Part shown: positions 14,975 to 16,594 of the stretch, piece after piece | How the letters are laid out: the number at the start of each line of letters is the position of its first letter | How positions within the stretch are numbered: the stretch's first letter is position 1 | Assembly (NCBI GenBank): GCA_022711075.1 | Contig: JAKLFS010000001.1 | Coordinates: forward strand, 3,859 to 44,135 | DNA from: Patescibacteria group bacterium | GTDB lineage: Bacteria; Patescibacteriota; Minisyncoccia; UBA6257; JAAZHW01 | Reading direction: 5' to 3' | Length of the DNA: 40,277 nt | Program-made: the position numbers and the translations under genes | Notes under the pieces: generated by a model | Database searches by the model: none | What the model was told of the DNA's origin: nothing | What the model saw: the letters and a program-made list of their open reading frames with translations, nothing else

Positions 14975-15073
14975 TTGCCCCAGAGTTTTTAACTAAGGGG
15001 ACTTGAGATTTCTCTTGAAACAAGAGAAATCGACCTAGGAACTCTCCGACTGTACGTCGGAAAGAAAAATTCC

Positions 15074-16594
15074 TTTTAGAATGATCCACCGACAGCTTCC
15101 GCTACCGGTGCCTTGTTACGACTTCGTCCCTGTTACCGAGCTGACCCTAATCCGCTGAAAGCGAACTTTAGGTCTTCCCGGCTCCCTTGACGTGACGGGC
15201 GGTGAGTACAGGACTCGAGAACGTATTCACCGCGGCATAGCTGATCCGCGATTACTAGCGATTCCGACTTCATGGGGTCGAGTTTCAGACCCCAATCCGA
15301 ACTAAGGCCATTTTTTTGAGATTAGCTCCGCCTTTCGGCTTGGCAAACCCTTTGTCTTGGCCATTGTATCATGAGTGTGGCCCAGGGCATCAGAGGGCCA
15401 TGCTGATTTGACGTCATCTCCATCTTCCTCCCCCTCTAAACGCACTTCACTTACTTAAAGTAAATGCGCTTGGAGGGGGCGGTCTCGTGTGACACTTGTA
15501 ACACACGACAGAGGTTGCGCTCGTTACCCCACTTAAGGGAACAACTCAAGCCACGAGCTGACGACAACCATGCAGCACCTGTCCTGATGTCCTTGAAAGA
15601 AAATATTCCTTTCGGAACATCGTCATCAGGATTTCTAGCCCTGGTAAGGTTCCTCGTTTAGCGTCGAATTAAACCTCATGATCCACCGCTTGTGCGAGTC
15701 CCCGTCTATTCCTTTGAGTTTTAAGCTTGCGCTCGTACTTCCCAGGCGGCCTGCTTAACGCGTTAGCTTCGCCACTCCGAGGGTCGATACTCAAAATAGC
15801 TAGCAGGCATCGTTTAGGGCGTGGACTACAAGGGTATCTAATCCTTTTTGCTCCCCACGCTTTCGTGTTTCAGAGTCAGATATGCTCCAGTTGATCGTTT
15901 TCACCTCTGGCGTTCCAGCCGATATCAACGGATTTCACCCCTACACCGGCTGTTCCATCAACCTATAGCATTCTCTAGTTTGACCATCTCTTCTGCAATT
16001 CCAAGGTTGGGCCCTGAGATTTAACAGAAGATGCTTCAAACCTCCTACACACCCTTTACGCCCAATAAATCCGGATAACGCTTGGGGCCTACGTATTACC
16101 GCGGCTGCTGGCACGTAGTTAGCAGCCCCTTATTCACTAGGTACTGTCAATTACTTCATCCCTAATAAAAGCAGTTTACAATCCGAAGACCTTCTTCCTG
16201 CACGCGGCGTCGCTCGGTCAGGCTTTCGCCCATTGCCGAATATTCTCGACTGCTGCCTCCCGTAGGAGTGGGACCCGTGTCTCAGTGTCCCTGTTGGGGA
16301 ACAGCCTCTCAGCTCCCCTACCCGTCATAGGCTTGGTGGGCATTTACCCCGCCAACTACCTGATAGGACCTAGGCCAATCTTAAAGCGATTTGCATCTTT
16401 ACCGAGCAAACAGTACGAATGCTCGGACTATGGGGAATTACCCGATCTTTCGACCGACTATGCCCCACTTCAAGGTATGTACCAAGGTATTACTAACCCG
16501 TTCGCCGGTCTTCTGTATTGCTACAGAATCCCTCGACTTGCATGCCTTATCCACGCCGCCAGCGTTCATCCTGGACCAGGATCAAATCCTCAAT
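15074..16594 (-). rRNA. rrs: 16S ribosomal RNA (about 1.52 kb), divergent CPR-like sequence; ends approximate to within a few nt
   Basis: Reverse complement contains GATTTGATCCTGGTCCAGGATGAACGCTGGCGGCG, ACTCCTACGGGAGGCAGCAG, GTGCCAGCAGCCGCGGTAATAC, ATTAGATACCCTTGTAGTCC, CCGCCCGTCAC and AAGTCGTAACAAGG. Confidence 0.95.

Follow-up and report, generated by a model that had tools for sequence, protein, structure and literature searches.

A 16S rRNA gene without an anti-Shine-Dalgarno sequence, and gene starts without Shine-Dalgarno enrichment, in a probable Parcubacteria-type bacterium

Introduction

How are start codons chosen in a bacterium whose 16S ribosomal RNA (rRNA) lacks the sequence that pairs with the Shine-Dalgarno (SD) motif? 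This question is raised by a 40,277-nucleotide (nt) stretch of contig JAKLFS010000001.1 (assembly GCA_022711075.1, positions 3,859 to 44,135 of the forward strand), hereafter the window. Its sole 16S rRNA gene ends without the anti-Shine-Dalgarno (anti-SD) sequence CCUCC, and few of its genes carry SD motifs. An earlier note on this DNA had proposed that initiation here is independent of SD pairing and that the rRNA partner itself has been lost. Our analysis supports that proposal through both the 16S gene and the absence of SD enrichment. We consider it very likely that the window derives from a Parcubacteria-type (Paceibacteria/Minisyncoccia) bacterium of the Candidate Phyla Radiation (CPR) in which the only visible 16S gene has lost its anti-SD, the genes lack SD motifs, and initiation proceeds independently of SD pairing.

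Results

The 16S rRNA gene is complete but lacks the anti-SD

The Rfam bacterial small-subunit model RF00177 has a match in the window over the full length of the model (model positions 1-1533; gathering score 50), and the match is the sole rRNA gene in the window. Neither a 23S gene nor tRNA genes were found within it. The gene and its 3' end comprise the following features:

15074..16597, minus strand: complete bacterial-type 16S rRNA gene (RF00177, 1410.7 bits)
15087..15110, minus strand: helix 45 (h45), CACCGGUAGC-GGAA-GCUGUCGGUG, intact with its GGAA loop (cmscan alignment)
15069..15086, minus strand: 3' tail GAUCAUUCUAAAAGGAAU, with UUCUAAAA in place of CCUCCUUU (sequence, cmscan, alignment to relatives)

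In the cmscan alignment, h45 retains ten pairs, two of them G-U, and the GGAA loop, just as the earlier note had described it. After GGAUCA, the CCUCCUUu of the model aligns opposite UUCUAAAA, which confirms that the tail has no CCUCC; the window reads GGAUCAUUCUAAAAGG at the place of the usual bacterial GGAUCACCUCCUUU. Thus h45 with its loop and the GAUCA are present, but the GAUCACCUCCUUU expected to follow is not. The gene is still a 16S gene and lacks the anti-SD alone. The anti-SD is absent from it, not merely unused. Further downstream, CCTCC, CTCCT, CCTC and CACCT are all missing from the rRNA-sense strand between 15125 and 14800 (325 nt; the next gene downstream starts at 14786), and the earlier statement that no CCTCC lies between the tail and the processing stem holds.

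The flanking sequences contain the elements that accompany the gene:

14950..14974, minus strand: 3' strand of the pre-16S processing stem, GCACGAAACAAUGAAAAAGGAGUUG (pairs with 16616..16640)
16616..16640, minus strand: 5' strand of the pre-16S processing stem, CAACUAUUUUUUCAUUGUUUCGUGC (pairs with 14950..14974)
15046..15060, minus strand: trailer hairpin CCGAC-GUACA-GUCGG, downstream of the tail (sequence, RNAfold)
15007..15031, minus strand: second trailer hairpin, GAUUUCUCUUG-UUU-CAAGAGAAAUC (sequence read directly)
16817..16899, minus strand: upstream of the 16S gene, two strong sigma-70-like promoters (consensus matches only)

The processing stem, of which one strand had been noted before, proved real: it spans 25 positions with two mismatches and 19 consecutive pairs, and a trailer of about 100 nt precedes it. 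Duplex folding of the long 16S flanks did not improve on shuffles in energy (-53 vs -49 +/- 5), so the stem rests on the 19 consecutive pairs read in the sequence. The promoters, matched by consensus, read TTGACA-16-TAAAAT (11/12 matches) and TTGACA-18-TAAACT. By these signals the 16S gene looks ordinary and expressed, and simply has no anti-SD.

Three side observations concern the same region. The 16S gene (14400..17579 region) is unlinked to 23S or tRNA genes and is flanked by a response-regulator gene on one side and a hypothetical gene followed by iPGM on the other. At the universal 1392-1406 primer site (15201..15210) it reads GUACUCACCGCCCGU, not GUACACACCGCCCGU, a mismatch that would hinder standard 16S primers. 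Finally, the 8-mer GAUCAUUC occurs both at 16608..16615, just before the region of the mature 5' end, and at 15079..15086, where the tail starts; this may be chance (p roughly 0.15 by estimate).

The anti-SD is missing throughout the close relatives

The 16S sequences nearest to that of the window are 81-87 % identical to it and include contigs named Minisyncoccia (L055) and Paceibacteria (L026). Comparison with these tails, which the earlier note had suggested as a check, showed that none of the close relatives found (82-87 % 16S identity) has an anti-SD. Most relatives in this range share GAUCAU(Y)UUUAAAGGAU, and the tail is kept over about 17 nt among those at 82-85 % identity.

To broaden the comparison, 185,579 species-representative genomes were scanned for an h45 with GATCA and then any base but C behind it; at least 120 stretches matched, and 119 were parsed. 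At least 109 of the 119 listed matches have a CPR-type h45 (CAC..GUAGC GGAA GCUG..GUG) and an A/U-rich tail without CCUCC. Among the matches listed, the names include Paceibacterota and Staskawicz-, Nealson-, Azam-, Lipton-, Harrison-, Colwell-, Campbell-, Lloyd-, Nomura- and Gribaldobacteria, and other clades conserve tails of their own, such as GAUCAAUUAAACUA in at least about 25 species. The cultured Minisyncoccus archaeiphilus, which has a complete genome with a single 16S copy (PMC12281837), is one of the species without an anti-SD.

The names of the nearest 16S sequences, together with an h45 type common to named Parcubacteria lineages, point to a placement of the window in the Parcubacteria (Paceibacteria/Minisyncoccia). 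Its gene content is typical of CPR bacteria and includes the leucyl- and seryl-tRNA synthetases LeuRS and SerRS, a class II tRNA synthetase, FolD, GreA, PBP2, MreC, NDK, iPGM and two type IV pilus clusters.

Some database names do not fit these sequences. The nearest relative of the window, L118 (JBAQLX010000157.1), is filed under a Desulfosporosinus metagenome-assembled genome (MAG), a name at odds with its 16S, and many contigs named 'uncultured Candidatus Saccharibacteria' carry Parcubacteria-type h45 and tails.

Gene starts show no SD enrichment

We scored an SD motif as GGAG, GAGG or AGGA at -17..-4 and computed duplex energies to ACCUCCUUA, with gene starts called by the same pipeline for every set:

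E. coli control (49 kb): 53 genes; SD 51 %; internal ATGs 5 %; -5.4 kcal/mol
Window: 34 genes; SD 6 %; internal 8 %, shuffled 4 %; -1.3 to -1.6 kcal/mol
Pooled anti-SD-less relatives: 524-660 genes; SD 10-12 %; internal 12 %, shuffled 6.5 %; about -1.9 to -2.0 kcal/mol
Same-h45 relatives with canonical anti-SD: 211 genes; SD 11.8 %; internal 8.7 %, shuffled 5.8 %; -1.65 kcal/mol

Only 2/34 window genes are preceded by an SD motif, a small fraction beside that of E. coli, and the earlier claim of essentially no SD motifs is upheld. The last set (L128-L247) combines the h45 of the window with canonical CCTCCTTTCTA(A/G)GGAG tails, and still shows almost no SD enrichment. Because relatives that bear CCUCC also have few SD motifs, the shift in SD use most likely preceded anti-SD loss, which would then reflect relaxed selection, and not the reverse.

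Both exceptions named in the earlier note exist:

8235..8251, minus strand: GGGGAGG (8251..8245), 7-nt spacer, ATG 8237; the sole canonical SD-like arrangement in the window
36392..36410, minus strand: GAGGA (36410..36406), 11 nt before the greA ATG 36394; spacing long for an SD

ATG 8237 is an in-frame alternative start of the gene at 7584..8264. The greA start at 36394 is backed by Pfam, with the GreA N-terminal domain aligning from residue 4.

Start regions are A/U-rich and weakly folded, with -10-like boxes close by

The start regions of the window have 29-32 % GC and a minimum free energy of -2.5 to -3 kcal/mol per 40 nt, compared with about -6 inside genes (p 0.002). At position -3, A is the most frequent base (18/34 genes), and G is absent at -1 and -3. 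Same-strand genes are tightly packed: 9/30 junctions overlap or have a gap of at most 3 nt, and 17/30 a gap of at most 13 nt. The earlier description of many TAATG, ATGA or TAAATG junctions is therefore only partly upheld.

A leaderless-type arrangement was found at one window gene:

8262..8300, minus strand: TTGGCG-18-TATAAT with the -10 box at -12..-7 from ATG 8264, at the start of 7584..8264

A -10-like TANNNT lies at -12 in this gene alone and at -14 in five genes, counts that are small. At other window genes the last -10 base is 12-33 nt upstream, giving predicted leaders of roughly 5-26 nt; overall, window promoters are predicted 0-26 nt from starts. The earlier note had placed several -10 boxes 12-17 nt from the ATG. 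Such boxes are present at several genes, but in the window alone they are not significantly enriched.

Larger gene sets sharpen the pattern. In the clade of the window (137 genes), the enrichment of TANNNT is broad and spreads over -25 to -12, with a sum of 37 over -17..-12 against 20.7 expected (p 8e-4). In the anti-SD-less pool (L007-L126) it forms a sharp peak at -12, in 65/520 genes against a background of 14 (p 4e-23), and in 47/320 first-in-operon-type genes. Many of these pooled boxes read TGnTAnAAT-N6-ATG. By its geometry, the pooled peak appears to be the classic signature of leaderless mRNA. Literature searches pairing 'leaderless' with Parcubacteria, Patescibacteria and related names returned no paper describing leaderless translation there.

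The gene at 7584..8264, which public annotation calls as a 226-amino-acid (aa) gene, thus carries two competing start signals, the leaderless-type TATAAT before ATG 8264 and GGGGAGG before ATG 8237. Its product looks pilin-like at the N-terminus.

A proposed mode of initiation

Taken together, these observations are consistent with the following mode of initiation. Ribosomes of this bacterium would be unable to form the SD helix, and the choice of start sites would therefore not depend on it. Where a gene opens a transcription unit, it would be read from a very short or absent leader, since the -10 boxes are found 12-25 nt before the ATG. The starts would all lie in weakly folded, A/U-rich surroundings in which A is favoured at -3 and G is absent at -1 and -3, and many downstream genes would be packed closely enough for termination-reinitiation. 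The sequence analysis shows no new complementarity between tail and leader in place of the old SD pairing.

Several points weigh against this account. The mature 3' end, the transcription starts and the initiation mode are all read from sequence, and the gene starts come from a crude open reading frame (ORF) rule. The window covers 40 kb (34 genes) of the genome, and a second 16S copy could lie elsewhere. A perfect GGAGG precedes the in-frame start at 8237 at a spacing of 7 nt, the exact leaderless geometry occurs at one window gene only, and -10 boxes at -12..-17 show no significant enrichment within the window, where counts are small. In addition, 5.2 % of the pooled anti-SD-less genes have strong, well-spaced SDs, which a purely SD-free model fails to explain.

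Strong SD motifs persist in a minority of genes

This last point deserves closer attention. AGGAG or GGAGG starting at -15..-9 precedes 34/660 genes of the anti-SD-less relatives, against about 6.6 per control window (p 2e-14). The fraction is about the same in relatives with a canonical anti-SD (16/211, 7.6 %). Some of these residual motifs are extended to AGGAGGTGAT, and in two small hypothetical families the SD-like motif is kept across orthologues at 26-49 % identity. Examples are found at L007 5811-6203, L062 59-448 and L097 3789-4187 (one family) and at L206 1781-2161 and L219 493-876 (the other), as well as L126 1180-3442, L013 261-1097, L084 1544-2836 and L023 6906-7844. A Pfam/PHROG search for a phage or known-family origin of the SD-led genes in the relatives gave no matches apart from one NYN domain, and none for the two families. 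In M. archaeiphilus, AGGAGG stands 5 nt before one gene within the 8 kb examined. In the window and its closest clade, strong SD motifs at pipeline starts precede 2/137 genes only.

The residual motifs may be remnants carried along with transferred genes, or they may serve another reader. It is conceivable, though rather unlikely, that across the anti-SD-less Parcubacteria, the closest relatives included, retained SD-like motifs are recognised by something else than the 16S tail or are regulatory, with bulk translation proceeding from leaderless or very-short-leader mRNAs. A related explanation, which we regard as unlikely, is that SD-like signals remain functional for a few genes through a non-tail reader, either another rRNA segment or a protein, while initiation is mostly SD-independent. 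The excess over control windows, its similarity to the level in canonical relatives, the conservation in two families and the GGGGAGG before ATG 8237 all speak for such a reader. However, no candidate partner was identified; the genes concerned are mostly hypothetical ORFs without a Pfam/PHROG match and could be recent transfers with relic SDs; and the motifs are scarce in the window and its closest clade.

No sign that the new tail acts as a substitute anti-SD

A further possibility is that the new tail (GAUCAUUCUAAAA) serves as an anti-SD of a different sequence and pairs with an A/U-rich motif that has co-evolved with it upstream of starts. The conservation of about 17 nt of the tail among relatives, the conserved tails of other clades and the A/U-richness shared by leaders and tails would fit this idea. 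However, the window leaders (-20..-1) are no more complementary to the real tail than to permuted tails, and they pair with it no better than shuffled leaders do. When the tails of five clades and of the window were tested against one another's leaders, none of the gene sets preferred its own tail, and all paired more weakly than internal controls. Furthermore, Amin et al. found no variant SD matching a variant anti-SD (PMC6107228). Lacking any duplex-energy signal relative to permuted tails, shuffled leaders or the tails of other clades, this alternative is very unlikely, and we reject it.

The tail is not an assembly artefact

The earlier note had allowed that the tail might be an artefact. 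We weighed this together with the possibility that the gene is a pseudogene copy, with a functional CCUCC-bearing 16S elsewhere. The window is only 40 kb of a MAG, 16S regions of metagenomes are often mis-assembled, and the contig of one relative (L118, labelled Desulfosporosinus) is clearly mis-binned. However, the tail is identical in four independent assemblies (NCBI, ENA and two JGI metagenomes) and is therefore not an assembly artefact. One of the four is a strain variant with single-nucleotide differences further downstream, and the NCBI one is the MAG contig DAOOSM010000001.1 (GCA_035389785.1), which contains the locus. The gene scores high over its full length and comes with strong promoters and the 25-bp processing stem. 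The same loss occurs in all close relatives found and in over 100 further species. A single rRNA set is typical of CPR genomes, and the single 16S copy of M. archaeiphilus has no anti-SD. Given the concordant assemblies, promoters, processing stem and relatives, we reject an artefact or pseudogene as highly improbable.

An extremely unlikely alternative is a displaced anti-SD, carried downstream by an extended mature 3' end or by an intervening sequence: insertions are frequent in CPR 16S genes (PMC9297842) and the trailer before the processing stem is about 100 nt long, but no displaced anti-SD exon was found in the 325 nt downstream in the window or the 3 kb downstream in relatives, where anti-SD-like 8-mers (pooled loci) are rarer on the rRNA strand than on the opposite one (11 vs 47), and we reject it.

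Tails with the same h45 form a graded series

Anti-SD loss can be followed among relatives with the same h45, a sequence common to many CPR metagenome contigs. A metagenome scan with the exact h45 of the window, its own tail left out, yielded 117 parsed tails. Among the matches listed, 61/117 have the canonical CCTCCTTTCTA(A/G)GGAG, and the remaining tails form a graded series, CCTCTTTTAGAGG, CTTCTTTAGAAG, TCTCCTTT, TCTTTAAAGGAT, TTTTTAAAGGAT and TTAAAATAAGAAAC; decay forms with an identical h45 include CCTCCTTT, CCTCTTTT, CTTCTTT, TCTTTAAAGG and TTTTTAAAGG. The series thus runs from CCUCC to UUCUA. In the alignment, UUCUA---AAAGGAAU of the window stands opposite CCUCCUUUCUAAGGAG of same-h45 relatives, and the change in the tail would correspond to C-to-U changes plus a deletion of roughly 3 nt from CCUCCUUUCUAAGGAG.

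Directly after h45, the tail and the AAGGAG-like segment that follows it can form a small hairpin. In the window (15069..15082), AUUCU and GGAAU can form five pairs, one of them G-U, around an AAAA loop. Across the series the two arms change together: CUCCUU/AAGGAG, CCUCU/AGAGG, CUUCU/AGAAG, AUCUU/AGGAU, CAUC/GAUG and, in the window, AUUCU/GGAAU. The hairpin occurs in 57 % of 138 unique tails, compared with 39 +/- 4 % of shuffled tails, and is often retained through anti-SD decay. Firmicutes pre-rRNAs commonly have a CUAAGGA segment immediately behind the mature 3' end. By this analogy, the hairpin is probably a precursor or processing element that lies outside the mature ribosome.

Other features of the window

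The window contains two type IV pilus gene sets, at 7584..14334 and 22960..31300, which encode PilB-, PilC- and PilT-like ATPases and platform proteins, several prepilins, a prepilin peptidase and PilM/N/O. A stand-alone ORF of 85 aa with a GIY-YIG nuclease domain (34132..34389) lies between the genes for seryl-tRNA synthetase and a class II (D/K/N-type) tRNA synthetase.

Discussion

Anti-SD loss is known in this group. Tsurumaki et al. (2022, RNA 28:1041) detected the anti-SD in just 48 % of Parcubacteria; lineages that lack it overlap with those that have no uL1, and SD helices are considered not to form in them (PMC9297842). The rplA (uL1) region lies outside the window. The window shares the missing CCUCCU at the 16S 3' end with this subgroup and belongs to the same radiation by its CPR-type h45, the names of its nearest relatives and its CPR gene content. 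Since the loss had already been published for the group, the window is a further example and no discovery, and the novelty implied by the earlier note does not stand. That paper gives the detection rate and the uL1 overlap only, with no gene-level SD analysis, tail sequences or mechanism (PMC9297842). What is added here is the decay series, the kept tail hairpin, the low SD use despite a present anti-SD, the leaderless signature and the residue of strong SDs; the pooled patterns among these rest on crude gene calls and are to be read as provisional.

Comparable losses occur elsewhere. Amin et al. (2018) described 128 taxa of other phyla without an anti-SD, also without SDs and with no matched variant SD (PMC6107228), and Nikolaeva et al. 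(2020) found anti-SD loss to be recurrent in tiny genomes (PMC7782861). Chryseobacterium, Elizabethkingia, Riemerella and Blattabacterium, some Mycoplasma, and Carsonella resemble the window in having tails without CCUCC, genes without SDs and no matching variant SD, and in the tie between anti-SD loss and reduced genomes. They differ in representing independent losses in unrelated phyla; the group of the window, unlike them, shows a visible decay series on one h45 and often keeps the tail hairpin. Lim (2012) is also said to be among the reports on anti-SD-less lineages.

The Bacteroidia provide a second comparison. They retain the anti-SD, which is sequestered by bS21, bS18 and bS6 (Jha 2021, PMC7797042; PMC13000453). 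These 'SD-blind' bacteria resemble the window in having genes without SDs and A-rich starts (A at -3), but the anti-SD of the window is itself gone: a retained, sequestered anti-SD was not found, the sequence being absent from the window 16S. The relatives with a canonical anti-SD also resemble the Bacteroidia, with the anti-SD present and few SDs.

A third comparison is with leaderless-rich bacteria and archaea. The pooled relatives and one window gene share with them a -10 box at -12..-7 (TANNNT-N6-ATG). Leaderless-rich Mycobacterium and Deinococcus keep the anti-SD and use SDs on leadered genes; Cortes (2013), as cited in PMC12641261, is reportedly a source for such bacteria. Unlike the leaderless-rich group, the window's own clade appears to have short leaders with no sharp leaderless peak.

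The pooled patterns could matter more than the window itself, as they point to SD disuse before decay, stepwise decay of the anti-SD, leaderless geometry and persisting strong SDs. The cultured M. archaeiphilus makes these patterns testable by experiment. For genome annotation, start calls in anti-SD-less genomes will be wrong where the gene finder depends on an SD model. SD/anti-SD pairing is the textbook mode of bacterial start selection; that bacteria can do without it is shown by the lineages that have deleted the rRNA partner, in which SD-independent initiation can be studied in a natural setting.

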